UHGV virus genome: UHGV-0141996
DNA from: a virus
Reading direction: 5' to 3' (one strand)
DNA: 13,855 nucleotides
Shown: positions 16-12,584 of the stretch, piece by piece
Numbering within the stretch: position 1 is the stretch's first letter
Layout of the letters: each line of letters starts with the position of its first letter
Notes under the pieces: model-generated
What the model was told of the DNA's origin: nothing
Database searches by the model: none
What the model saw: the letters and a program-made list of their open reading frames with translations, nothing else
Program-made: the position numbers and the translations under genes

Positions 16-39
16 GCGCGGGGGGGGTCATTCCCGCGC
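16..39 (-). terminator. Candidate hairpin downstream of the 50..964 minus-strand gene
   Basis: GC-rich inverted repeat GCGCGGG (16-22) / CCCGCGC (33-39) with a 10-nt loop, just 3' of the minus-strand stop at 50-52. The U-tract on the minus strand is poor (ACTTTCAAAC), so intrinsic-terminator status is uncertain. Confidence 0.3.
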
Positions 40-49
40 GTCCGGCGCT

Positions 50-964
50 TTATGGTAAGTATTTAAGTATTTCTGCTGCCCAGTTTACACGGTGGATGAC
101 ACGGGCATGGTGCAAGTTTCCGTCTAGTATTTCGGCTTTAGTTAGCTGGGATAACTGCTGCCAATTATTGTTAAGTATATAAGTTGCGTTATTACATTGT
201 GAGCTTTCTAGCACGTAAATGTTTTGGCCTGTGAACCCAAATATCACGTAGCCTTGGAACCCAGCTTGCCCAACCGCTACGAAATCTGGTTTTTTACTAT
301 TGATAAGTTCAAGTCTGCCTTCAACAACAGCGGTATTGCCCTTTCCCCTGATCTTAATAGCTGAAAGGATTTTTGAACCGATAGTACTCCAAGGCTGTTG
401 ACCCTGAGGCAGGAGGCTCCAGTTTAGTTTTATAGATTTACTTTTAACGATGGTATTAAGTTGGTCGTCAACAGTTTCGCACAACCCAAAAAGCTCTAAA
501 AAAAGATTAATGCAGTGAGCCACTAACTCTTTGTTGTTAGCTGTCAAACTTAGCTTTGGAGAGATGATCAACTTCTCCCCTTGCAGATTCTCTACAATCT
601 TTAACTCTATGCTTGGTGGAGGGGTGAGGATTCTCTTGTAGCGCTTATACTCAATTTCACGAGTGTCAGTAACTTCTTGAGTTGCGCCCCCTCCGATCCA
701 TTGCTTTCTAGTCCATGAAATTTGTCTGTATGCAGTTTCTTTAGGTGCTGTTTTGTCAGGTACTGATTTGCCATTAGCATTGAATCTGGTTATTGGCCCT
801 AAAATTTTGGGGAGGACTTCTTCACCTAAAGCTCTTTGACTTGAGAAACCAATAGAGTCCGTTTTCCCCGCATCTGGCAAAGAATGTGCAATGTAGATAT
901 CACGGCCATCAAAGTTAGGTATGTAATTATCAATATTTCGAATACGCTTTTTCTGAATAAGCAT
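50..964 (-). CDS. Hypothetical protein, 304 aa, AT-rich orphan; no recognisable motifs
   Basis: Uninterrupted 304-codon ORF with ATG start and a good Shine-Dalgarno (AAGGA, 7 nt upstream on the minus strand). Composition is visibly more AT-rich than the central operon. Hairpin immediately downstream. No catalytic or family motif recognised by eye. Confidence 0.7.
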   Translation of the reverse strand: MLIQKKRIRNIDNYIPNFDGRDIYIAHSLPDAGKTDSIGFSSQRALGEEVLPKILGPITRFNANGKSVPDKTAPKETAYRQISWTRKQWIGGGATQEVTDTREIEYKRYKRILTPPPSIELKIVENLQGEKLIISPKLSLTANNKELVAHCINLFLELFGLCETVDDQLNTIVKSKSIKLNWSLLPQGQQPWSTIGSKILSAIKIRGKGNTAVVEGRLELINSKKPDFVAVGQAGFQGYVIFGFTGQNIYVLESSQCNNATYILNNNWQQLSQLTKAEILDGNLHHARVIHRVNWAAEILKYLP

Positions 965-1802
965 GGATCGTTCCTTTTGATTTTATCTTACTGTTTACAT
1001 AACCAACCAAGCCGGGCACAATCGAGCCGTTAGAGACGATAGTGAGGCTAACAATCGTTATGAGTTTGCAGACTCATGGCGGTCATGCTTCATAGACCGG
1101 ATTCACGCAGGTGACTCCGGTTTTTTTATGCCCATCATTTATACATGGGCACAACATATAGGGTGTGTTAATAAGATTACCCCCTACATGTTCAGCATTC
1201 TAGTTAGGATTCTTTGCAGTACAAGGGTTGATTTTGAGGTTAAATTGAGGTTGTCAAAGGGAAATTTCGACCAACCCTACGTGCCGTAAGGCTTAGGCTG
1301 TATGTCAATGTTTCAGAAAAAAAAATGAAAATTTGATCGAGTGCTGATTTCTTTAGCACGAGAACATGAGATCGAACCAAAATATTGCAAAGTTTTGAAC
1401 AAAACTTGAACTGCCTCGTGTCTCCATAGCCAAGACGAATGCAGTTTAAATAAGCTAAGTCAGCTCTCAAAAGTCCTTTATGACCCGAACCAAAAATTGT
1501 ACCTCTTAAACCCCACCGCAAGCGGCTCTCCGGGGTTTGTGCGCATGGAGTAATGCGGTTGTACTGGGTATGTGCGCACAACCCTCTACAAGCCGCATTC
1601 TACCGTTAGCCTATAGCTGAATCCCCGGCTTGAAAAATTGCACGCTTATGGTTGCCCCTCCCTCAACTCTATAGCTCGCCCGCGCCCCCGTGCGCATGTG
1701 CGTGCCCGCGCGTCAGGGGTCGCTGAGAAAACCCTAAGATTTTGCTCATCCGAGGCAACCGTTGCAGGCGCGTGTTGCCGAGGGCACACTGCCAGTGTTT
1801 GA

Positions 1803-1908
1803 TGGTGTCATCAATCGTTCGATTCTTGCTACCTTCCTGAGTGATTACTATCTGGTGTCATCAATTTAGGGTTTGACTAAATGCTACCACCAATGCAATG
1901 ATGCTACC
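1803..1908 (+). promoter_or_regulatory. Repeat-bearing leader/promoter region upstream of the serine recombinase gene
   Basis: Exact 13-bp direct repeat TGGTGTCATCAAT at 1803-1815 and 1853-1865 (50 bp centre-to-centre). ATGCTACC at 1881-1888 and 1901-1908, plus TTGCTACC at 1826-1833. TTGACT -35-like hexamer at 1873-1878. SD GGAGAGGTG precedes the ATG at 1940. Confidence 0.35.
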
Positions 1909-2515: not shown

Positions 2516-3215
2516 TGGCCTACAACCGAATGAGGTGCTATGACTGGCCGTTACTGGGCTGTGGGTGATGGATGACCTACAGCTTTTGTATTAATTTCAG
2601 AGGGTTATGTTATGCGTAATATCATAACGATATGATTTATAATGTATTTTCGTATTACTTGCGGCTCTCGATGTGAAGAGGTGGCGGGGCTTTAGCCGTG
2701 CCAGACGATGAACATCGAGATCAGATTGTGAATGTGATTCATCACTGAACAATTCGAGGGATGGGGCAGGGGAAGGGATCAAAGGCTGCGTTGTCCAATC
2801 ACTAAGCTAGATTTGAAGCTGGTCAACACGTTAGTAGTATCTTTAAAGTTGCATTTTAAATACATGTACAAGAAAGGGTTCTTCCCTTACATCCCTTCTC
2901 CTAAATGTAGTTACGAGTGCTTCGCTCTCTTCACTTGCTGCGCTTCTCGCTATGCTCCAGCCCGCTCCATCGCCTTTGGCTCATTCCCGGACTTCGCCCG
3001 CTGTGATGCTCGGCCACTCTACGCAACCGTGCTTGCCGTGGCAGGCAACGCGGCGGGGATGTGTAGTGGAACGGTACTCTGTATCGGTATGATTACTGTA
3101 TTCAATCACATACTGGTATCAGTAGGTATCCTTCAAAACATCTTCATTCATTTCTGTATCGTTCAATCATCTTTCTTGTTCGTTTCCTTTCAGGTCTTAG
3201 CCGTTGGTCATTGGT

Positions 3216-3330
3216 CTTACTGCCTGCTGTGCTACTGCCAGCTATGGCACGCCGTCACGGTCTACTGTCTGTTACCTGTCCTACTGCCTTCACTGTCTGC
3301 CGTCTGTCAGTCCTACGGTCTGCCATCCGT
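3216..3330 (+). repeat. Iteron-like short repeat cluster in a pyrimidine-skewed ORF-poor region
   Basis: YTACTGYC-type motifs at 3216-3224 (CTTACTGCC), 3231-3239 (GCTACTGCC), 3261-3271 (TCTACTGTCTG) and 3281-3288 (CTACTGCC). CTGTCTG-type motifs at 3293-3308. Tandem CATCCGT CATCCGT at about 3324-3337. The plus strand is strongly C/T-rich. Confidence 0.4.
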
Positions 3331-3778
3331 CATCCGTTCGGCGCTCGCTTGTTTCGGCTGCGCCGCGCTCGCTCTGCGTATCTAGCGATACTATATCACT
3401 ATAGACACTTTCATAATTATATAATGATTACAGTAACTTATGTTTTCTGTTTTAAAAGCTACTAATAAGGAGATATAGAGCATTACTTACCCGCTTTTGA
3501 CCGACAAAAATCGCGTTGTTAAGTATTGCCAGCCCAGGCTCAATAAGGCTTAGCGAGGTGGTGGCTAAAAAATGAGCTAATGAAGGTATCTACTAAGGAG
3601 AAAGAATAACTCCCGAAGCGCGACAAACTCTCCGATTTTGAAAGTGACTATTAAGGCAGATAAAGACACTGACACTGTTGCTGACATGAAAACTTCTAAA
3701 AGGGCAGAGAGTCTGCCGAACCCGTACCGCTGACCCAACCTGAGCTAATACCTACCCCTATTTTCTGGAGATTTCACC

Positions 3779-5623
3779 ATGCCAACAAACCTACGCCGCC
3801 TGCTTGCGCAGGCTGCCGACGCTGACCCGCTCAATACTGCGGACGCAGATGTACAGCAAATGATCGCTGACGGGATTGTTATTCGACGTTCCAAGATATG
3901 CCCTGTAAAGCGTAAACCCGTTAAGGCGGCATACAACACAAAGACCGAAGAGTTTTATTACAATGCAGATGGCTCCGCGATGACCTTGCGGGAGTGGCGA
4001 ACGCTGCACGGTGTTCAACCGAAGAAACAAAAACAGCGCTCTGACACTGGGTTGCGGCAAGTCATCCAGCCCGGCGACGCGATTCACTGCCGACGCGCTG
4101 AGATTGAGCAATGGCTTAATAAGAAGCCCGCTCGTTATGTTGACCCGCTGCCGCCAGATTTTCCCGGTGTTCGCGTAGACGATGCCGCATTGAAACCGCG
4201 CGAGCACGCCGTGCCGGAAGCGACAACCGGACAGAATGCTTTTCTCAAAGCCTGCCGCGAGTTCCTGATTTGCGATGAGAAGACCATGCGCCGTATCAGT
4301 CGGGGCATGAACCAAATGGAAGCTATGCGCAACGCAGATTTCAAACGCTACGGAGACTCAGGGGAGTTTCGTCAATTGTGGTGTGGAGAGTCGAAGCCTA
4401 CCGAAGATAGATTTAATAGTTCTAATCATCATTGTGACCCGAACGGCTTGGCTGCTTCGCCGTCTGTGCCGCCACTGAATACTGCACCGTATGAGTTCCG
4501 CCCGCTGGCTCGCTGTGACCGAAACGCACGCGTTAGCCTGCTGCCACCTGATGGGCTGGAGTGGAGGCCGGGGCAGTTGTCTGTTGCTGATGCGATCTTT
4601 TCCCGTGGCAGTGATGTGCTTGCCGTACTGCCGACCGGGTATGGCAAAAGCGCCGCCTTCACTTATCCATTGATTTATGAGTCCCGCGCTGGCATTGGCC
4701 TGTCTGTAATCGTGGTTCCTACTAATACCCTTAAGCGTCAGATTCTCCGCCAGTTGCGGGAGGCTGGCATTCACGCTGTGGCCTTTGGCGATAAGCTACC
4801 GAGGCACCGCAACGCACAACAACTGGCGGGACTAGCAGCCGGGGCGTTCCGGGTTGCTGTTGTTTCGCCTGAACATCTGGTTCCGTCGAGTCAGGTTCTC
4901 GCGGCGCTGATGGCTTATGGCGTTGATCGTTTTATTATCGATGAGGCACACACGGTCAAAGACTGGGATTTCCGCCCAGCTTACGACGCAATGCAGCACA
5001 CACTACAGAATGCTTTTCCCTCGGCTCAGCGCTGCGTGTTTACGGCTACTCTACTACGTGAAAATGAGAGCGGTTTAATGGAGGCGCTGGGATGCCGTGG
5101 CGATTACGTTACATTCCGTGCTGATGTTGCTCGCGAGAATATCCAGTTGATTCCGGTCAGGCAGTGCCGCCAGCGATACCGCGCGGCTGTTGGTCTGGTC
5201 GAGGCTCTGCCAGAGGAAGAGAAGACGCTCATTCTAGTCAATGACCTTAAGACGTTGCGGGCGTACCTGAAACTCTTCGGCGACCGGGCGCGCCCATATC
5301 ACTCGAAGACGATGCACCTGAGCAACGAGGAACGCCACGCAAACGCTGAGTGGTTTGCCTCTGCGCCGGGCGCGATTCTGATTGCTACTAAAGCCTTCGG
5401 GCTGGGTGCTGATGTTCCTGATATCCGTAACGTTGTCGTGACATACGTTCCCGATGACTTGCCTGATCTCGTTCAGATGATTGGACGAGCCGGGCGCGAT
5501 GGGGAACCTGCCCGCGCTTTTCTGCTGTGGTCATCGCTGGCGCTGGATGTTGCTCCTGATGAGCTTGCTTACTTCTACCGCCCTGAAAACTGTAACTGGC
5601 AGTACATCGCTAAATACCTCTGA
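3779..5623 (+). CDS. RecQ-like superfamily-2 DNA helicase, 614 aa, with a roughly 280-aa N-terminal region of unknown function
   Basis: Helicase motif I LPTGYGKSAAF, motif II DEAH box FIIDEAHTV followed by DWDFRPAY (RecQ-like), FTATL, and motif VI QMIGRAGRDG. SD GGAG 9 nt upstream of the ATG. The N-terminal region has no recognisable primase or helicase motif. Confidence 0.85.
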   Translation: MPTNLRRLLAQAADADPLNTADADVQQMIADGIVIRRSKICPVKRKPVKAAYNTKTEEFYYNADGSAMTLREWRTLHGVQPKKQKQRSDTGLRQVIQPGDAIHCRRAEIEQWLNKKPARYVDPLPPDFPGVRVDDAALKPREHAVPEATTGQNAFLKACREFLICDEKTMRRISRGMNQMEAMRNADFKRYGDSGEFRQLWCGESKPTEDRFNSSNHHCDPNGLAASPSVPPLNTAPYEFRPLARCDRNARVSLLPPDGLEWRPGQLSVADAIFSRGSDVLAVLPTGYGKSAAFTYPLIYESRAGIGLSVIVVPTNTLKRQILRQLREAGIHAVAFGDKLPRHRNAQQLAGLAAGAFRVAVVSPEHLVPSSQVLAALMAYGVDRFIIDEAHTVKDWDFRPAYDAMQHTLQNAFPSAQRCVFTATLLRENESGLMEALGCRGDYVTFRADVARENIQLIPVRQCRQRYRAAVGLVEALPEEEKTLILVNDLKTLRAYLKLFGDRARPYHSKTMHLSNEERHANAEWFASAPGAILIATKAFGLGADVPDIRNVVVTYVPDDLPDLVQMIGRAGRDGEPARAFLLWSSLALDVAPDELAYFYRPENCNWQYIAKYL

Positions 5624-5660
5624 GTCGAAAGGCTCTCCCTGATTCTCTGGAGTTAATCAT

Positions 5661-6098
5661 ATGCCTGTTACCGAACATGCGCAGCGTCGTGCTGCGCGTG
5701 CGGATGCGCTCATCACCGCACAACTAGCCTTTGCCCTGAATGGGTACAACTGGGATGAACTGGCCGAACCTCATCGCAAGACCCTTAATCGTGAGGCCAT
5801 CATTAGCGAGGTATCTACACCGCTGGAGCGATATTGCCTGCTGAATGATTGCGAGCCGTGGGAGTGTCTGGCCGCTGTACTGAACCGCATGAAAAGGCCG
5901 GATGGCTCGCGTCGCTGGAAAGCCGTCCGGTTGTCCGACCGGGTTTTCAATGGCCGGGTGCATCCAGTGCGCAAGACTCCTGATGAAGTTTACGCCGCCA
6001 TTGCCCGCCGCTTGTTCCTGCCGAAGCCTGTGCATCAAGAAGTGATACAGCACATCCGTGCGCTTGGCTTGTTACCAGTTGGAGATAACCACCAATGA
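5661..6098 (+). CDS. Hypothetical protein, 145 aa
   Basis: ORF with GGAG SD 8 nt upstream. Stop overlaps the next start (ATGA at 6095-6098). Codon usage and GC match the operon. Confidence 0.6.
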   Translation: MPVTEHAQRRAARADALITAQLAFALNGYNWDELAEPHRKTLNREAIISEVSTPLERYCLLNDCEPWECLAAVLNRMKRPDGSRRWKAVRLSDRVFNGRVHPVRKTPDEVYAAIARRLFLPKPVHQEVIQHIRALGLLPVGDNHQ

Positions 6099-6304
6099 CG
6101 AAATCTGAATTTGAAAATGAAACATGGCGAATGAAGGGCTTGCTTCTTGGGGCGCTGATTCGCCGCCTTGAGGAAGATAAGGCTGGCGAGTCGCGCATGG
6201 TCGCAGCGGAGTTATCCAGTGCGGTCAACTTCCTTAAGGCCAACGCCGTAGAAGCACCGGACACATCATTCAACAACGTGTTCCCGGAGGATGACGAACA
6301 ATGA
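6095..6304 (+). CDS. Hypothetical small protein, 69 aa
   Basis: ATGA overlap with the upstream gene, GGAGA SD, and its stop overlaps the next start (ATGA at 6301-6304). Confidence 0.55.
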   Translation: MTKSEFENETWRMKGLLLGALIRRLEEDKAGESRMVAAELSSAVNFLKANAVEAPDTSFNNVFPEDDEQ

Positions 6305-6477
6305 CCCCTGAACAATTCAGACAATGGTTCGCCACGCTGCCACCGAACTATCAGAGCGCCGCACGCACCATGTACGACAACGCCCGCAAGTCGGGCATAC
6401 ATACCGCGTCAAGCCTTGCGCTGATTCACACGTTGGTTACTGACCAGATCAAATTTGATTCGGAGTTTAATTTATGA
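6301..6477 (+). CDS. Hypothetical small protein, 58 aa (below the ORF-track length cutoff)
   Basis: Hand-translated: ATG at 6301, TGA at 6475-6477, giving MTPEQFRQWFATLPPNYQSAARTMYDNARKSGIHTASSLALIHTLVTDQIKFDSEFNL. GGAGG SD upstream. ATGA overlaps at both ends, continuing the translational-coupling pattern. Confidence 0.45.
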   Translation: MTPEQFRQWFATLPPNYQSAARTMYDNARKSGIHTASSLALIHTLVTDQIKFDSEFNL

Positions 6478-7037
6478 CTTTGAGTATTACCGATATCCAG
6501 CGCATTAACGCGCTGGCTCATAAGCACCTAAAGAACAATGAAGAGATTGCAGCGGAGACAGGTCATACCCTGACCGATATTGATGCTGTAATCCGTGGCG
6601 TCTATGTCGATGACTTGGCCGAACATTGGAAAGACGATGCTGATATTACTCTGGCGGAGTACAACGCCATCCGCAGCCGCTATAAGCCCGGCAAGTTGCA
6701 CCGCGATACAGAGTTTATGATTGCCCGCGATATGCTGATTCGCCCTGAGACTGTGCTGGCTATCGCCCATTCCCGCTTTAGCAACGTCCACACGCACCCA
6801 GTGCCGAAAGCCGTCAAAGCAAAGCCGGAGAAAGCGAAAGTAGTGCGCAAGTTAGTGCTTACTGATTTAGATGAAATCCACAAGTTAGAGCGCTTCGGTT
6901 GGCCTGCTGCGGAGATCGCCGGGAAGCTGGGCGTCCCTGTTGAAGTCGTCGCGCATGTGCAACGCTGTCTGAGAAATCGTTGGTCGTACCCGGATACTCT
7001 GGAGTTTGTTAACTCCAAATTCAGCGAGGCTGAATGA
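6474..7037 (+). CDS. Hypothetical protein with C-terminal HTH-like segment, 187 aa
   Basis: ORF with GGAG SD. C-terminal LTDLDEIHKLERFGWPAAEIAGKLGVPVEVVAHV resembles an HTH/sigma-region-4-like DNA-binding segment. ATGA overlap with the next gene. Confidence 0.6.
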   Translation: MTLSITDIQRINALAHKHLKNNEEIAAETGHTLTDIDAVIRGVYVDDLAEHWKDDADITLAEYNAIRSRYKPGKLHRDTEFMIARDMLIRPETVLAIAHSRFSNVHTHPVPKAVKAKPEKAKVVRKLVLTDLDEIHKLERFGWPAAEIAGKLGVPVEVVAHVQRCLRNRWSYPDTLEFVNSKFSEAE

Positions 7038-7270
7038 TGGCAGAGAACGAACCGCTGCACCCCGCCGTTAACCCTGATCTCTACGTGAACCTTGACGAAC
7101 AACGCGAAGGATACGCTCCGATTGAATCACGGGGTTGGGATGTGCTGACGCAGAACCTGACCGGGGAAGGGCGAATCGACCCCAGCCAAACACTTAACCA
7201 GAATCCGAAACAACGCCCGCGCGGCTCCGTTGGTGAGCGTCGTTGGCTTCGTAAACGTAGATTACTTTAA
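7034..7270 (+). CDS. Hypothetical small basic protein, 78 aa
   Basis: ATGATG tandem start (7034 or 7037) with GAGG upstream. Arg/Lys-rich C-terminus. Confidence 0.5.
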   Translation: MMAENEPLHPAVNPDLYVNLDEQREGYAPIESRGWDVLTQNLTGEGRIDPSQTLNQNPKQRPRGSVGERRWLRKRRLL

Positions 7271-7282
7271 CGAGGAATTACC

Positions 7283-7522
7283 ATGAGCAAAACTATCGTA
7301 TTGCTGCCGCCACGCAAGAATACAGACTGGGCTGCACAATTAAAGCTGATTTCTGAATCGCTTGAGGTGAGTCAGGCAGACCTCGCCCACGCCTATCAGG
7401 TTGATCGTCGGGATATGGGTAAAGCGTATCACGGTGTGCGCAAACTGCCGGAACGTTGTGTGCCTGTTCATATGCTGTTGTTAGCGCAGGTACACGACTT
7501 TAGAGCATTATCAGGAGAATAA
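7283..7522 (+). CDS. Hypothetical small protein, possible HTH DNA-binding, 79 aa
   Basis: GAGGAA SD 5 nt upstream of the ATG. Central segment SQADLAHAYQVDRRDMGKAYHGVRKLPE is compatible with a Cro/XRE-like HTH; weak. Confidence 0.5.
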   Translation: MSKTIVLLPPRKNTDWAAQLKLISESLEVSQADLAHAYQVDRRDMGKAYHGVRKLPERCVPVHMLLLAQVHDFRALSGE

Positions 7523-7525
7523 TTT

Positions 7526-8254
7526 ATGTCTGACCAGAATGTTAATCCGTACCTTTCCGGTGCTGATACTGCATCGCAGCAATCGCCGTACATGGCTGCA
7601 CCTGTTGGCGCTGACAATGGCGCATCTCGCTTTAGCTCTGCGCCTGCTGATGCTGATTTCCTCCGTACCCAGCCCGTTAATGGCAATGATGGCGGCCAAT
7701 GGAATAATGGCAACATTGCTAATCAGCAAGACCAGAACGCGGACAGCGCCGGGGCGCAGGTGGGCGATACTATCCCCCTGATGGATGGAACAGCTATTGA
7801 GTACACCGCCGAGCTACAAGGGTTAATGGGGCAGTTTCACCAGTCTGTCGAAAGCCAGCTAGGGCAGGGGACAGTTGACGCGATGTTGCAGTACGCTGGC
7901 ACACTCGACGCTGGGACGCAATCCACCCTTGAACGTATGGTTATGTCTGGCGACCCTGCGCAGATGCAGCGGGCGGTTCAGTACCTGCAAGAACGTATGG
8001 CTGCTGGTTCTGCTTCCGGGTACGTTCCTGCACAGGGAAACCCATACGGCCAGCCTGCCGCGCAACCTGTCGGAATGTCACATGCTGAGTTTATAGCAGC
8101 GTATGACCAGCTTTCGCAGTGGGCGCAGCAATCAGGGTATGGCCCCGGCCATCGCCAGTACGACGAACAATACCGTGCTCTGGTTGCGCAGCGCTCCGCT
8201 GGCAAACGTGCTGGTCGCTTACGCCCAACGGTGGAATGCGCCCTGCAAGACTGA
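7526..8254 (+). CDS. Gln/Ala/Gly-rich low-complexity protein, 242 aa; possible scaffolding protein
   Basis: Strong SD AGGAGA. Low-complexity Q/A/G/D-rich composition with predicted helical C-terminal half. Sits immediately upstream of the capsid-like gene region, as scaffold genes do in T7-like and P22-like head modules. The functional call is positional and compositional only. Confidence 0.4.
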   Translation: MSDQNVNPYLSGADTASQQSPYMAAPVGADNGASRFSSAPADADFLRTQPVNGNDGGQWNNGNIANQQDQNADSAGAQVGDTIPLMDGTAIEYTAELQGLMGQFHQSVESQLGQGTVDAMLQYAGTLDAGTQSTLERMVMSGDPAQMQRAVQYLQERMAAGSASGYVPAQGNPYGQPAAQPVGMSHAEFIAAYDQLSQWAQQSGYGPGHRQYDEQYRALVAQRSAGKRAGRLRPTVECALQD

Positions 8255-8317
8255 GTGCGCACCAACCCGGTACTACCACACCAATCTAAGCGCATGAGTC
8301 CCCGCAAGCCGCATTCT
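8255..8317 (+). repeat. Intergenic GC-rich motif block related to the 1539-1601 block
   Basis: GTGCGCACCAACCC (8255-8268), GCGCATGAGT (8290-8299) and CAAGCCGCATTCT (8305-8317) recur in the same orientation at 1539-1601: GTGCGCATGGAGT, GTGCGCACAACCC (1572-1584) and CAAGCCGCATTCT (1589-1601, exact 13-mer). Confidence 0.45.
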
Positions 8318-8360
8318 GCGCGGCATCTGAAAGCCTGTTTTTAATTAACCGAGGTTCGTA

Positions 8361-8774
8361 ATGAGTACCTGTAATTTCCATGCCGTGGTGCGTGTCGCTG
8401 ACGTGCGCCCGGATTTCGCCTTGCCGCTGGGTAGATGCGACCACATTTACCCTGAGCGTGTGCAGCACGTTTTCAATCCAGACGAAGCGGTTTATATCGT
8501 TGCCCGGTCTGCCACATCCGGCACCCGCACATCTGGCGTTAGCCGTGGGCTTTCCCCTGTGCTGCCGCCGAAGATGGCCGAGCGGATGCGCGAACGTAAA
8601 CGGCACGAGAAGAATCGAGCCAGACCCCGCAAGGTGATCACTGAGGCGATACGCGCTGACATTATCGATCGCTCTGCAAAAGGCCAGAAGAATCGTTACA
8701 TTGCAAGCAAGGTTGGCGTGTCTGAAACCTCTGTGCGGAAGGTGTTGAACATGGCGCGTATGAGTGCGCACTAA
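8361..8774 (+). CDS. HTH-domain protein, 137 aa; possible regulator or packaging-associated DNA-binding protein
   Basis: GAGGT SD. Basic Arg/Lys-rich middle (RMRERKRHEKNRARPRK) and C-terminal HTH-like segment (IIDRSAKGQKNRYIASKVGVSETSVRKVLN). Confidence 0.55.
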   Translation: MSTCNFHAVVRVADVRPDFALPLGRCDHIYPERVQHVFNPDEAVYIVARSATSGTRTSGVSRGLSPVLPPKMAERMRERKRHEKNRARPRKVITEAIRADIIDRSAKGQKNRYIASKVGVSETSVRKVLNMARMSAH

Positions 8775-8993
8775 TGCAAGGTAATACGTTCGCCTTACTT
8801 CACGCGCACTAACCCCTGAGAACCGCGCCAGCTCTGGCCTCAAAACGCCCATTTCGGGGCACCTCATCCCTCTTAATCGATACCGTTCTGAATCCTGCCT
8901 CGGCGGGAGGATTACGCACGCCCGCGCCATGACGATGGCCGGGCTTATCTCGTCAGTGAATCCGCTGGCACAACCTACGTAGGAGTTTTACAT

Positions 8994-9989
8994 ATGGCCG
9001 ATAACATTTACTCGCCTGACCAGTTCCGCCCACATTATGGCGGGGTGGAATCTGACAATGATATTCACATCGAGGCTTATGACCGGGATGTCCAGACCCG
9101 TTTAGAGTCCAAATCCGTATTTCTGGCCGAGGGGCTGTCTACATACAGGCCGCTGAAAGCCAGCAACCAATACCGCATTGATCGCCTGAGTGGTGATCTT
9201 GAGGTGAAGGGCAGAACCGCAGGGCAATCGCTGGAGCCTACCGCCGTTAAGTCGGACAAGTTGGTTATCTCTGTGGATACGCTGAGCTATATCCGCATCC
9301 CGATTGACTATCAGGATGACTGGACAGCTCCCACCTTTCGCGCAGAGCTGAGCCGCAATATCGGTACTGCTCACGCTAAATTCTACGACGAAGCGCACAC
9401 CATCCAGCTAATCAAAGCGACTGACTTCGTACCGCCGCCGACACTGCAACCAACGTTTAACCCGCTTACGGATAATGTTGTCTCGCTCGACCTGACAGCG
9501 GGGAGCGAAGAGGATGCAGCTAACGAACTGGTTCACGCTATCAAAGCTGCTGTTAATCGATTCCTGACTGAGAAAGATATTCCGGTGGCGGAGCTGGTAC
9601 TGCTTATCGACCCGGCTTGGTTCAGCATCCTGATGGAACATAAGAAGCTGATGAACGTCCGTTACAGCCGGGATAGTGGCAACGATTACGCATGGCGTCG
9701 TGTTGGCTATGTCGCTGGGGTGCGAGTTATCGAGCTGAATAGTTACCCGCAGGAAGCCATTACCGGGCATGAACTGGGCGCTGATTATGACGTTACCGCA
9801 GAGGAAGCGCTGACGAGGGCGACGCTGTTTAAACCTTCCTCGGTACTGTTGACGGTCGAAGCGCAGAGCGTCATCAATCGCCAGTGGGATGATGAAAGCG
9901 AAATGACGATGGTGATGGACTCATATCGCCTGTTCAACGTTGGGCTGCGTCGTCCTGACTGCGTTATCAATTTCCGACAAGCTGCATAA
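8994..9989 (+). CDS. Putative major capsid protein, 331 aa, T7 gp10-like by eye
   Basis: Strong SD AGGAG. Length and block pattern resemble T7 gp10 from memory: KLVISVDTL..IPIDYQDD...RAEL..NIG.AHA and a C-terminal VLLIDPAWFSIL ... GVRVIEL ... LF..S.V.L.V block. No protease gene adjacent, consistent with a scaffold-dependent capsid. Confidence 0.55.
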   Translation: MADNIYSPDQFRPHYGGVESDNDIHIEAYDRDVQTRLESKSVFLAEGLSTYRPLKASNQYRIDRLSGDLEVKGRTAGQSLEPTAVKSDKLVISVDTLSYIRIPIDYQDDWTAPTFRAELSRNIGTAHAKFYDEAHTIQLIKATDFVPPPTLQPTFNPLTDNVVSLDLTAGSEEDAANELVHAIKAAVNRFLTEKDIPVAELVLLIDPAWFSILMEHKKLMNVRYSRDSGNDYAWRRVGYVAGVRVIELNSYPQEAITGHELGADYDVTAEEALTRATLFKPSSVLLTVEAQSVINRQWDDESEMTMVMDSYRLFNVGLRRPDCVINFRQAA

Positions 9990-10005
9990 CTGGAGGGGCT
10001 GAGTC

Positions 10006-10515
10006 ATGGTTAATGATGCTTACGCCCCTGAGCTGTTGCGATCCCTTTTCCTGTATGACCCGGTGACAGGTCGCCTGCACCATAAAGCTAACCGACGCCG
10101 GGTTAAGGCTGGCTCCTATGCTGACTCCACCCAGCGAGCTGATGGCTATCGTCAAGTTGCCCTGCGACTTGATGGCAAGCAGTACCAGCTAAAAGCCCAT
10201 CGCGTGGCATGGATTCTTGCGCATGGCGCTATTCCTCACGGTAAGCAGATCGATCACATCAACGGTATCCGTGACGACAACCGCCTATGCAATCTGCGTT
10301 TGGTTACGCAGCGGGAAAACGACCAGAACCGACGCAAGGCAAGGGGATATAGCTGGAATAAAGGCAGTAGCAAATGGGAGGCTTACATACGCGTTGATGG
10401 TGTACTCCGTCACCTTGGCTTATTTACTACCGAAGCGGCGGCGCGTGCTGCCTATCTAAAAGCTAAAGCCAGATACCATCCCTCAACGCCAGCCGATTTG
10501 TTGCAGGCTGCCTAA
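10006..10515 (+). CDS. HNH endonuclease with C-terminal AP2 domain, 169 aa
   Basis: HNH motif HRVAWILAHGAIPHGKQIDHINGIRDDNRLCNLRLVTQRENDQN. AP2-like segment YSWNKGSSKWEAYIRVDGVLRHLGLFTTEAAARAAYLKAKARYH. SD GGAGGGG. Confidence 0.85.
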   Translation: MVNDAYAPELLRSLFLYDPVTGRLHHKANRRRVKAGSYADSTQRADGYRQVALRLDGKQYQLKAHRVAWILAHGAIPHGKQIDHINGIRDDNRLCNLRLVTQRENDQNRRKARGYSWNKGSSKWEAYIRVDGVLRHLGLFTTEAAARAAYLKAKARYHPSTPADLLQAA

Positions 10516-10533
10516 TCCTCGGAGGTTCCATAT

Positions 10534-10959
10534 ATGGCTGATGAAAAGCCGATTAGAGCGCTGGCAGATGATGACCCACGCCGCCAGCGGTACGCTGAAC
10601 TGATGGCGCAGGCTGGCCGCATGACTATTCCCCGACTGCATCCGGGCGATGCTAATAGTGTTATGAGCCAACTTGCGACGATGCTCGGCGCACCTGTCCC
10701 GATAGTCGGTGCTATGACTGAGCACGCCGCTGCATGGCGTGCCTGTATGCTGGAGCAAGGGCTTGGCGATCTTCTGGATGGCTTGAGTAAACAGGTGCTG
10801 ACCATCTTCTTTCTGCTCTGCTGGAGAGACAGCGCCTTGCGATTGGCGGGTAAGCAAAAGGAACGGCTTACAGCGGCCAGCGAGGGTTTGACCATTGAGC
10901 AATACCGGGCGATGCACCCGGCTTACAGAGAGAATAAAGAAGATGATAACCACGATTAA
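10534..10959 (+). CDS. Hypothetical protein, 141 aa, in the position often occupied by a small terminase subunit
   Basis: Strong SD GGAGG 8 nt upstream. Lies immediately downstream of the HNH gene. No recognisable motif; the small-terminase suggestion is positional inference only. Confidence 0.55.
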   Translation: MADEKPIRALADDDPRRQRYAELMAQAGRMTIPRLHPGDANSVMSQLATMLGAPVPIVGAMTEHAAAWRACMLEQGLGDLLDGLSKQVLTIFFLLCWRDSALRLAGKQKERLTAASEGLTIEQYRAMHPAYRENKEDDNHD

Positions 10960-11242
10960 ATTAAGGTGGCGGTACATCGAGCCGCCGCCAATGACTGGCG
11001 CACTCGCTGACCTGAAACAGTGGGTAATGGATACCGGAGAGCCTGAGCTGGAAGCTGAATTTCGTAAGCTGCTGGGGCTAATGCGCCGCAACGGTATCAG
11101 TGACGAACGCGTTAATGCGATGGCTGATGAGCTTTATGTTCTGGTTTGCCAACGCCAGTGCGAAGAATACGAAGCCTGCAAGCGGGCTGCGTCTGACAAT
11201 GGAGACTTTGAATCATGGTTACACGGACAGACCAACTACTAA
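10943..11242 (+). CDS. Hypothetical small protein, about 99 aa; start ambiguous (alternative upstream start at 10895)
   Basis: The ORF track starts at 10895 and overlaps the upstream gene by 65 bp. The in-frame ATG at 10943 (MITTIKLRW...) is preceded by AAAGAAG and gives a minimal overlap. Cys-containing segment CQRQCEEYEAC. Confidence 0.45.
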   Translation: MITTIKLRWRYIEPPPMTGALADLKQWVMDTGEPELEAEFRKLLGLMRRNGISDERVNAMADELYVLVCQRQCEEYEACKRAASDNGDFESWLHGQTNY

Positions 11243-11640
11243 GAAAAGCGATGCGGGACTATCTGGAACACCTCGGCAACATGCCGTTGGCTGAACGGAT
11301 TACAAATGCTGCTGTATTCGAAGATGTGTATCGCTTCCTGTTGAATGGTTCCGGTCGGCTGGAGTTGCGCCGCGCTGATGTGGCCGCTGTTCGTATCTTC
11401 CTGTGGAATTACCAATACCGACGCTGTGCGGTGACAGGTAAGCCGCTGCGCCTTACGTCTGCCGTGCTAGATCACTGCCACCGAACCGGGCGCGTGCGTG
11501 CTGTGGTGCATCGTTCTGCTAACGCTGCTGAGGGAGGCCGCTACGTTGGGCGGACGTGTGGTGTTAGCGTTGCGAACTTAAGGGCTATGGTTGGCAGCTA
11601 TCGCAAGCAATACACCGGTATTGGCGTGTTATATCCATAA
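11215..11640 (+). CDS. Endonuclease VII-like (HNH superfamily) protein, 141 aa
   Basis: Segment CAVTGKPLRLTSAVLDHCHRTGRVRAVVHRSANAAEG matches the Endonuclease_7 pattern (C..C-like ... DH.H.TG.VR ... N...G) with substitutions. GGAG 9 nt upstream. Last gene of the plus-strand operon. Confidence 0.55.
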   Translation: MVTRTDQLLRKAMRDYLEHLGNMPLAERITNAAVFEDVYRFLLNGSGRLELRRADVAAVRIFLWNYQYRRCAVTGKPLRLTSAVLDHCHRTGRVRAVVHRSANAAEGGRYVGRTCGVSVANLRAMVGSYRKQYTGIGVLYP

Positions 11641-11681: not shown

Positions 11682-12584
11682 TCAAACAGGAATGTTGTAG
11701 TAATGACAAATGGCATTAGTTAGTAGAGCTGGTGCAGCAGATGCTGCAATATTTAGCGTTCCCGCATATGCTTTACCAATCATATCACCAAGCCACCCTC
11801 CAACTTTTCCTCCTAAATTATCCATAGTGGTGGGCACTGGAGATTCTTGTATAGCTTGCTGAAGCGTTGTTATGTCTGCTTCTGAAACTCCCCATTCTTT
11901 AAGTTGTTTCTCCAGCGAATTAAAATCTCCTGCTATAATCGTGTTATTCTGGTTAATGTCTCCAGTATTCCCAGCACCAATACTGCCTGCATTATTAACT
12001 GCGCCATTAAAAATATTAGTATTGTTAACCGTCATAGGAGCGACCTCTTTTTCTGCCTGAGTGAACAATAACCCTTCACCCATAATCCCCTGTTTTTCTA
12101 ATTCAAGTGACCAATCAAGAATCTTGTTTCTTACAGTTGTGACTATGTGAGCAAATTTACCAGAACTAAAGAACCAGCATATTTCAGGTCTTGAATGTTG
12201 ATCGTGATATAACATTTCAGCCATTTCTAGTGGGATAGGGAGCCTTATATTTCCTTTTGTGCCCTCTGCTCGTATCATTGATGCTATAGATTCAGTGAGT
12301 GTATAAGTAGTAAACTTACGCATAATCTTTGCGCTTATGTTACCAAGATCAACTGGAATCCAGCCGTTGAAAGGGTTATAGGCTTTTAACTGACCGTGCC
12401 CAGTTCTATATTCTGGGGCTGATGCAATTGTAGGGTAGCCATTCAATTCGTGCTCAATCCAGCCTGTAACATCTTCCAGGCCAAGCTTGACGGCTATTAC
12501 TTTAGCTTTCATTAAAAGAGCGATAATATCAGTGTTAGGATCGCTTGCAAGAGCTTGAAGTTCAAGAACTGGTGAGTTAGCCAT
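11682..12584 (-). CDS. AT-rich cargo gene, 300 aa; putative AbiTii-like abortive-infection protein with Asn/Gly-rich C-terminal half
   Basis: Intact ORF with strong SD (TAAGGA 6 nt upstream on the minus strand). N-terminus (LELQALASD..IIALLMKAKVIAVKLGLEDVTGWIEHELNGY) resembles AbiTii-type domains as I recall them; unverified. C-terminal half is N/G-rich low complexity ending in a hydrophobic segment. Located between the integrase and the phage-like operon; markedly AT-rich. Confidence 0.45.
   Translation of the reverse strand: MANSPVLELQALASDPNTDIIALLMKAKVIAVKLGLEDVTGWIEHELNGYPTIASAPEYRTGHGQLKAYNPFNGWIPVDLGNISAKIMRKFTTYTLTESIASMIRAEGTKGNIRLPIPLEMAEMLYHDQHSRPEICWFFSSGKFAHIVTTVRNKILDWSLELEKQGIMGEGLLFTQAEKEVAPMTVNNTNIFNGAVNNAGSIGAGNTGDINQNNTIIAGDFNSLEKQLKEWGVSEADITTLQQAIQESPVPTTMDNLGGKVGGWLGDMIGKAYAGTLNIAASAAPALLTNAICHYYNIPV

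Follow-up and report, generated by a model that had tools for sequence, protein, structure and literature searches.

A widely distributed 304-residue protein family on mobile DNA, with NrdR-box matches in the leader of its Escherichia coli gene: a candidate stress-released effector

UHGV virus genome UHGV-0141996, a stretch of 13,855 nucleotides (nt) that was analysed at its full length and is hereafter called the window, carries near one end a minus-strand gene for a 304-residue protein (positions 50–964). Our results indicate that this gene is real and mobile, that it is subject to purifying selection, and that it remains unclassified. We tentatively favour, at somewhat less than an even chance of its being right, the reading that the product is a tightly repressed effector of a toxic or abortive-infection-like kind that would be induced by replication stress. 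The evidence that carries this reading is regulatory. Members of the family are accompanied by sequences matching the boxes of the repressor NrdR, by LexA-like repressors, or by CapH/CapP-like pairs, which are mutually unrelated and all respond to DNA damage or to the status of the deoxyribonucleoside triphosphate (dNTP) pool. Because the regulators respond to these signals, and because antitoxin-like partners or a candidate antisense RNA occur with them, the product may well be harmful and released only under stress.

The 304-residue protein and its family

The coding sequence and its flanking signals are as follows.

50–964, minus strand: coding sequence of the 304-residue protein, intact, with an ATG start (open reading frame and translation).
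971–976, minus strand: ribosome-binding site (RBS) AAGGAA, 6 nt 5′ of the ATG (from the sequence).
16–39, minus strand: GC-rich hairpin, a weak terminator candidate, starting 11 nt past the stop codon.

A preliminary description of the window, made from its sequence alone, had called the gene intact, with a strong RBS and a downstream hairpin, and AT-rich relative to the central operon. The open reading frame (ORF) is indeed ATG-initiated and complete, and its RBS is a good one, with AAAGG conserved at this site in an alignment of eight loci. The annotated start codon is right, since the N-terminus MLIQKKRIRN is kept throughout the family in the alignment of homologues. The hairpin exists too, but it is a weak terminator at best: it has a 7-bp GC stem and a 10-nt loop, its folding energy of −14.7 kcal/mol corresponds to a z score of only −1.76, it lacks a U-run, and the terminator scan made no call at the 3′ end of the gene. 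As to composition, the ORF has a GC content of 41.0% (0.410) and a third-position value (GC3) of 0.384, against 54.7% (0.547) in the core used for comparison (3779–11640), where the helicase and capsid genes have a GC3 of 0.57–0.60. The 34-kDa protein is predicted to be soluble and basic (pI 9.4; hydropathy index GRAVY −0.3), and its basic pI would be compatible with nucleic-acid binding.

The protein matched zero families in profile hidden Markov model (HMM) scans of Pfam-A, NCBIfam, PHROGs and PADLOC v2, and a Pfam scan of 44 aligned homologues at E ≤ 1 returned scattered single-member noise only. Searches of PDB sequences with the single sequence and with a profile gave no hit; CheY and Pvc7, at E 0.2–1, were noise. 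The preliminary description had recognised no family motif and had left the gene as unclassified cargo, and both statements hold across these libraries and the structure search given below; homology to a characterised non-defence family was likewise sought in the profile libraries and the PDB and not found. Its word "orphan", on the other hand, does not apply. A word-indexed search returned 722 matching proteins at E ≤ 1e-3, and an exhaustive HMM search retrieved 2021 clusters (50% identity), of which 423 reach E ≤ 1e-30. The top 150 HMM matches are all stand-alone proteins of ~300 residues with the same architecture, and no domain fusion was found among them. Identity between phyla is still 40–47%, and 37 columns of the 44-sequence alignment are invariant. 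To judge from these searches, the family has no characterised relative.

Members of the family occur in Proteobacteria, Firmicutes, Bacteroidota, Cyanobacteria, Chloroflexota, Actinomycetota, Planctomycetota and Verrucomicrobiota, as well as in many Patescibacteria, Thermotogae and methanogenic archaea. This spread is very wide yet sparse: two peptide patterns, run against representative genomes from 185,579 species, confirmed at least 133 relatives, a number that is a lower bound. A protein 100% identical to that of the window is present in Enterobacter chuandaensis and Kluyvera ascorbata. The wide and sparse pattern, with identity across genera, therefore points to horizontal transfer.

AlphaFold2, run with an alignment, predicts two domains (residues ~1–176 and ~185–304). 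The full-length model has a predicted local distance difference test score (pLDDT) of 89.9 and a predicted template modelling score (pTM) of 0.55; the values for the N-domain (residues 1–176) are 90.4 and 0.76. A Foldseek search of the model against the PDB returned nothing at E ≤ 1e-3; the entries named with this search, none of which reached that level, were an integron cassette protein, the C-terminal domain of TnsE, YdhG-like proteins, frataxin-like proteins, the C-terminal domain of MotA, and YjbR. Since both domains match no solved fold, any activity assigned to the protein would be new biochemistry. The predicted structure contains no recognisable nuclease, NTPase or other catalytic fold. 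This bears directly on an alternative that we regard as improbable, in which the protein is a solitary nuclease of unrecognised fold that attacks foreign DNA in a restriction-like or modification-dependent (Type IV-like) manner, the regulators merely tuning its expression. Such a nuclease would fit a broad horizontal spread combined with high conservation, as seen for restriction genes, and the family does conserve acidic, histidine and lysine residues (E76, E97, E120, H150, E157, E253, K276 and H291). However, no PD-(D/E)xK, HNH, GIY-YIG, PLD or HEPN signature or fold was detected by profile and structure searches, and D227, the candidate "PD" aspartate, is not conserved in the 44-sequence alignment.

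The nrdA-like leader and a candidate antisense RNA

Homologues from Enterobacterales, whose coding sequences share ~74% DNA identity, remain homologous for ~390 nt 5′ of the ATG (965–1353). As the identity there is at the same level as in the coding sequence, the gene and its ~390-nt leader form one unit, within which we recognise the following features.

965–1190, minus strand: predicted 5′ untranslated region (UTR) of ~225 nt (blastn and alignments of eight loci, mean column identity 72%).
1149–1164, minus strand: strong NrdR-box match, ACCCTATATGTTGTGC, weight-matrix score 16.4.
1181–1196, minus strand: weaker partner NrdR box, GCTGAACATGTAGGGG, weight-matrix score 6.9, abutting the −10 hexamer.
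1197–1224, minus strand: inferred sigma-70 promoter with a 16-nt spacer (−35 TTGTAC, 1219–1224; −10 TAGAAT, 1197–1202).
1184–1353, minus strand: upstream promoter region, 75–80% identical to the Klebsiella nrdA promoter region.
994–1022, plus strand: promoter-like site TTTACA-17-CACAAT (promoter scan; both hexamers kept in most of the eight aligned loci).
1029–1130, plus strand: candidate cis-antisense RNA of ~100 nt, predicted, complementary to the 5′ UTR of the gene.

The transcription start of the 304-residue gene was placed from the position of the promoter at 1197–1224. This promoter lies below the threshold of the consensus scan; its two hexamers are co-linear with those placed in the same way upstream of K. 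pneumoniae nrdA and are kept in 7–8 loci. Copies with a similar degree of identity to the region 1184–1353 are found on enterobacterial plasmids devoid of the 304-residue gene (L097 4001–4210, L100 4001–4163 and L099 4001–4170; L numbers designate loci), where tandem boxes with main scores of 17.0–17.5 stand before other genes. By sequence comparison, the nrdA-like cassette is possibly a portable NrdR-controlled promoter.

NrdR is a repressor that senses dATP and ATP, and to our knowledge it has so far been regarded as dedicated to ribonucleotide reductase genes. We scored its boxes with a weight matrix built from six validated E. coli boxes, which score 14.5–18.6 against their own matrix; these boxes come from the oligonucleotides with which NrdR binding was measured in PMC12176259. 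A match as good as the strong box is expected by chance at 7e-7 to 2e-6 per position, or ~1e-3 in the 975-nt gap between the gene and the serine recombinase gene. The partner, with a chance rate of ~6e-4 to 1.2e-3 per position, starts 32 nt upstream of the strong box (start to start), leaving a 16-bp linker. In PMC12176259 and PMC13584703, an NrdR site is defined as two partially palindromic 16-bp boxes, 15–16 bp apart, in a promoter region. The window has this layout, and so do L018–L021, L104, the K. pneumoniae nrdA region and, independently, L072. The main box lies ~200 nt 5′ of the ATG in L018–L021, L103 and L104, with scores of 12.9–21.2, and partner boxes (scores 6.3–11.9) occur at 30–32 nt in all other leader-bearing loci scored for one. 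The tandem arrangement is thus found in Pantoea, Kluyvera, two Enterobacter loci and Pectobacterium, and Serratia has a single strong box. The box sequences vary between loci with the consensus kept. Upstream of a Methylotenera homologue (41% identity), the sequence is unrelated, yet two boxes 31 nt apart stand just before the RBS.

From these matches, NrdR is predicted to bind the leader. The likeness to the reductase operons of the NrdR regulon extends to the tandem 16-bp boxes, the 15–16 bp linker, the place beside the promoter and the surrounding promoter sequence; unlike those operons, the gene is mobile cargo, encodes no reductase and has no detectable nucleotide-metabolism domain. No LexA box was found in the leader at ≤1 mismatch, and literature searches for NrdR combined with anti-phage activity, and for the accession, found nothing.

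The candidate antisense RNA would consist of a long stem-loop followed by a 13-bp terminator hairpin (1094–1123) and a U-run to ~1130. The minimum free energy of the plus strand is −41.1 kcal/mol (z −5.27) versus −25.7 kcal/mol (z −3.0) for the sense strand, and the RNAalifold consensus is −26.8 versus −15.4; the conserved fold favours the plus strand, whose G-U pairs become A-C mismatches on the sense strand. Paired cells make up 92% of the alignment, and six pairs have changes in both partners; 2 of 500 shuffles attained this level. A search of the intergenic region against Rfam, with gathering and E-value thresholds, gave a sub-threshold potC match only. We regard 1029–1130 as a candidate ~100-nt cis-antisense RNA directed against the 5′ UTR.

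The closest parallels to such an arrangement in E. coli are symE-symR and tisB-istR-1, which are SOS-induced type I toxin-antitoxin loci; the toxins of this type are small (<60 residues) and usually hydrophobic. The 304-residue gene resembles them in the stress-responsive repressor implied at its promoter (1149–1224) and in a predicted structured, constitutively promoted RNA complementary to the 5′ region of its mRNA (1029–1130). It differs in three respects: the repressor implied here is NrdR and not LexA; the product, a soluble, basic, two-domain protein of 304 residues, is far above the size of type I toxins; and the predicted antisense RNA leaves the RBS uncovered.

Regulators, neighbours and carrier elements

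We surveyed 91 loci that carry homologues, using a simple ORF caller and all-against-all clustering. No obligatory partner gene emerged, a result compatible with the single-gene system that the preliminary description had considered possible. A regulator or DUF2188 gene is close by in 33 loci, and the regulators sit immediately upstream, usually on the opposite strand. Repressors with LexA_DNA_bind and Peptidase_S24 domains occur in ~13 loci. Helix-turn-helix (HTH) HTH_3 and Peptidase_M78 domains (CapH/CapP-like) are encoded by separate genes in L054, L047, L031 and L048 and are fused in L010 and L029, and HTH_3 plus SocA/Panacea proteins lie 430–575 bp upstream in three loci (L066, L076 and L069), which recalls PanA-PanT. 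In 11 loci, a gene for a DUF2188 protein of ~80 residues runs in the same direction as the homologue and directly adjoins or overlaps it. Typical cassettes set CapP-CapH, or a LexA-like gene, opposite the target gene and DUF2188. CapH/CapP, DUF2188 and Panacea genes are absent from the E. coli window.

The LexA-like, target and DUF2188 genes travel together, because near-identical cassettes of the three span different phyla. Closely similar LexA-like repressor genes stand beside the homologue in L043, L045, L055 and L092 (at ~9200–11200 in each), whose hosts are Proteobacteria, the candidate phyla radiation (CPR) and unclassified metagenome-assembled genomes; DUF2188 completes a three-gene cassette in L043, L045 and L055. 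The presence of such similar cassettes in distant hosts therefore argues for cassette transfer between phyla.

Putative defence operons under the control of the DNA-damage-responsive CapH/CapP pair, including operons of DUF2188 with hypothetical protein(s), were described by Lau et al.; CapP and CapH lie upstream on the opposite strand, followed by the hypothetical protein(s) and DUF2188 (10.1101/2022.04.27.489752). This predicted "DUF2188 + hypothetical" operon is the closest published item to the family. The likeness lies in the HTH and M78 peptidase genes upstream on the opposite strand and in the abutting DUF2188 gene (L054, L047, L031 and L048; fused in L010), but it concerns only part of the family and not the E. 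coli window, and the DUF2188 operons of Lau et al. are themselves only predicted to be defensive. Membership of the hypothetical proteins of the published Extensimonas operon in the family was not confirmed, and Extensimonas is not among the matches listed in the second homology search. A resemblance of DUF2188 to the HicB antitoxin is suggestive and statistically non-significant (PMC13621843), and Panacea is described as a promiscuous antitoxin domain paired with many unrelated toxin families (PMC8832971).

These associations also bear on a different role, which we consider rather unlikely: the protein could be an accessory factor that helps the host or the element through DNA damage or replication stress, for example a repair or replication-restart adaptor binding UvrB-like or Mfd-like proteins or damaged DNA, and be neither a toxin nor an immune effector. 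That the NrdR boxes and the LexA-like and ImmA/IrrE-like regulators all answer to DNA damage or dNTPs would suit such a factor, as would the basic character of the protein. A sparse, patchy spread over plasmids, prophage moron sites and defence islands is, however, atypical for repair genes, and the antitoxin-like partners (Panacea and DUF2188), together with the disruptions by insertion sequences described below, point to a harmful product.

Homologues are found in mobile elements and defence islands and not in conserved core-genome contexts. On Lactococcus SK11 plasmid 5, an LlaGI-like single-chain Type ISP restriction-modification (R-M) enzyme is encoded directly upstream of the homologue. 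Drt9 and a Type ISP-like restriction endonuclease-methyltransferase occur near the homologue in L010, SIR2 in Methanobacterium, and a Type III R-M methyltransferase in Kosmotoga. Defence genes thus lie near homologues in several loci, with AbiTii in the same element as the gene of the window. For the solitary nuclease considered above, the adjoining LlaGI-like enzyme and the R-M genes near other homologues are favourable; however, no cognate methyltransferase recurs among the 91 loci, and a repressor and antitoxin-like partners would be unusual for Type IV enzymes. Other homologues are borne on small plasmids, beside replication genes and toxin-antitoxin systems. In a P2-like prophage of Proteus, tail genes S and V flank the homologue (L101 8001–8933, 50% identity), which is encoded on the strand opposite to the surrounding tail genes, as for an inserted accessory gene, and is preceded by a short AT-rich stretch. 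Solitary insertions of the gene, with housekeeping genes around them, occur in Pectobacterium, Ewingella and Methylotenera. Serine recombinases within 5 kb in 15 loci reflect the mobile contexts. As a separate observation, four loci (L058 113–415, L061 9441–9743, L057 4613–4918 and L051 8805–9296) encode, directly adjoining the homologue and on its strand, a protein of ~100 residues that weakly matches GIY-YIG (E 0.002).

The window itself is E. coli DNA, and the same 15.4-kb stretch is present in strain KFu019. There, 31-nt direct repeats of the 3′ end of a tRNA-Leu gene (leuX) flank the element, one copy within the tRNA and the other just past the tyrosine integrase gene; since these repeats bound the element, the 304-residue gene lies inside it, at the integrase-distal end. 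The element encodes a tyrosine integrase, AbiTii, a RecQ-like helicase, a major head protein, a scaffold-like protein, an HNH endonuclease, endonuclease VII and a serine recombinase, a gene set that marks it as capsid-bearing and satellite-like. The 304-residue gene is accessory cargo of this capsid-encoding satellite-like element at leuX. The AbiTii gene (11682–12584, minus strand; Pfam E 5e-40, PADLOC E 4e-44) adjoins the integrase, and in KFu019 its place is taken by genes for a methyltransferase, an HTH controller and a restriction endonuclease (L001 27672–29511). Because of this exchange, the integrase-proximal end looks like an exchangeable defence slot or hotspot. Single-gene Abi proteins such as AbiTii are comparable to the 304-residue protein in being encoded by stand-alone, AT-rich, patchily distributed genes at satellite or prophage ends or on lactococcal plasmids, but the latter resembles none of the PADLOC v2 models, Abi or other, in sequence or profile. 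A side observation concerns the 614-residue RecQ-like DEAD/Helicase_C protein (3779–5623, plus strand), which matches the PADLOC model "DpdF" over nearly the whole length (PDLC02858, E 9e-278). Other Dpd genes are absent; the model may derive from satellite helicases, or the helicase may have a defence-related role.

Among 5426 complete E. coli genomes, 101 carry the gene, all on the chromosome and at ≥99% identity. In sequence type 648 (ST648), it is found within a 5.6-kb remnant that lacks an integrase and has the same leuX repeats at its borders, and such a remnant retains the gene in most E. coli carriers. IS1 or ISSen4 interrupts the gene in several strains (H4–H7 and H103; e.g., NZ_CP128939.1 4078701–4080392), and truncated forms of 253 residues are frequent in public assemblies (88 contigs, versus 145 with the full-length form). 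The preliminary view of a recently acquired cargo gene is supported, the carrier being a mobile element. The gene could instead serve only the mobile element itself, through anti-defence, superinfection exclusion or maintenance by addiction, with no benefit to the host; we give this explanation little chance. For it speak the constant location on or beside mobile DNA, the retention in the 5.6-kb remnant, as for an addictive module, and the small plasmids with replication genes and toxin-antitoxin systems. However, a basic protein of 304 residues is unlike the typical small acidic anti-restriction proteins, the gene stands alone amid housekeeping genes in Pectobacterium, Ewingella and Methylotenera, and the addiction variant overlaps with a repressed toxic effector, since it likewise needs a toxic product.

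The remainder of the region between the gene and the recombinase contains one further feature, which does not belong to the module of the 304-residue gene.

1803–1865, plus strand: start of the recombinase module, with two copies of TGGTGTCATCAAT followed by ATGCTACC repeats.

The gap (965–1939, 975 bp) to the serine recombinase gene (1940–2515) has no RefSeq annotation. The preliminary description had presented it as a repeat-rich non-coding region, unusually long for a simple divergent promoter. Its length and non-coding nature stand, but "repeat-rich" was an overstatement: apart from the inverted repeat given below, the repeats are one 13-nt direct pair (1803–1815 and 1853–1865) and the short ATGCTACC repeats near the recombinase gene. 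The only ORF in the gap (1240–1581) has a TTG start and is neither conserved nor annotated, and it was rejected. The stretch 1354–1800 is common only to close relatives, and within it lies a GC-rich imperfect inverted repeat (1522–1596; 24-nt arms, 75% complementary, 27-nt spacer). In most E. coli carriers, identity to the window ends at ~1817, at a homology break in TGGTGTCATCAATCG (1803–1817), which holds the first TGGTGTCATCAAT copy (L002 13800–13940 was compared), and a recombinase only 46% identical follows; in ST648, different genes come after that recombinase. Because identity stops there and another recombinase follows, the recombinase forms a module of its own that can be swapped. Three short repeats precede the start codon in each recombinase type and differ between the two, ATGCTACC in the window and TTTTCTGGCA in ST648, which suggests res-like binding sites and an exchange of modules at the junction. 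The recombinase is absent beside the homologues in Pantoea, Serratia, Pectobacterium, Ewingella, Proteus and all other phyla, and it is not functionally tied to the 304-residue gene. The divergent geometry noted earlier is therefore correct, but the two genes are separate modules: the gap is composed of the ~390-nt gene leader, a spacer, and a promoter and repeat module that belongs to the recombinase, and is not one divergent promoter. An invertible promoter switch for the recombinase was also rejected, as there are no long flanking inverted repeats and the module is swapped independently. Between the recombinase and the helicase, a second gap of ~1.26 kb (2516–3778) has a lower GC content and no RefSeq annotation; its only ORF (2813–3385, TTG start) is implausible.

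A possible stress-released effector

In the reading that we favour, the protein would be a self-contained effector, harmful to the cell or to an infecting phage, and kept off until the cell meets DNA-replication or DNA-damage stress. In E. coli and its relatives, two locks would hold it. NrdR, bound at the tandem boxes, would silence the nrdA-type promoter as long as dNTPs are plentiful, and a constitutive antisense RNA of ~100 nt would pair with the long 5′ UTR in the manner of type I toxin-antitoxin systems. In other phyla, regulator or antitoxin-like genes (CapH/CapP-like, LexA-like S24, HTH-Panacea and DUF2188) would take their place. Derepression would come, for example, when phage replication drains the dNTPs or damages DNA, and the target of the released protein would be nucleic acid or a protein that handles it, with growth arrest or aborted infection as the outcome.

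Several findings weigh against this proposal. In the window, the partner NrdR box is weak (score 6.9), and NrdR boxes are absent in Ewingella, where they were lost beside an 88% identical protein, and in the Proteus prophage copy. Covariation support for the antisense RNA comes from only eight related sequences. Two thirds of the surveyed loci have no adjacent regulator, and the Panacea genes, confined to 3 of the 91 loci and missing from the window, are divergent in two of these and co-oriented in one, unlike classical PanA-PanT operons. In ~90 E. coli genomes, an intact copy of the gene is apparently tolerated with no protein antitoxin beside it. As the searches revealed neither a catalytic motif nor a catalytic fold, the effector step is a pure inference.

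Stand-alone effectors under tight regulation are already a known kind of system on mobile DNA. What would be new here are the protein fold, the control of a non-reductase mobile gene by NrdR boxes, and an antisense-RNA guard on a 34-kDa protein. Only a slim chance attaches, in our view, to the far-reaching version in which a new-fold immune or toxic effector is triggered by collapse of the dNTP pool, NrdR doubles as a sensor that unleashes effectors of mobile elements during phage replication, and the locus is the first antisense-RNA-guarded, type I-like module with a 34-kDa toxin.

The family is large, highly conserved and uncharacterised, comprising ~2000 clusters at 50% identity from bacteria, CPR lineages and archaea. 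The occurrence of three unrelated regulator types on one cargo gene leads to a testable hypothesis, namely that of an effector triggered by replication stress. The NrdR regulon would be extended by boxes that stand, in two independent lineages, before a mobile gene that encodes no reductase, and their presence on mobile cargo would link dNTP sensing to mobile-element conflict.

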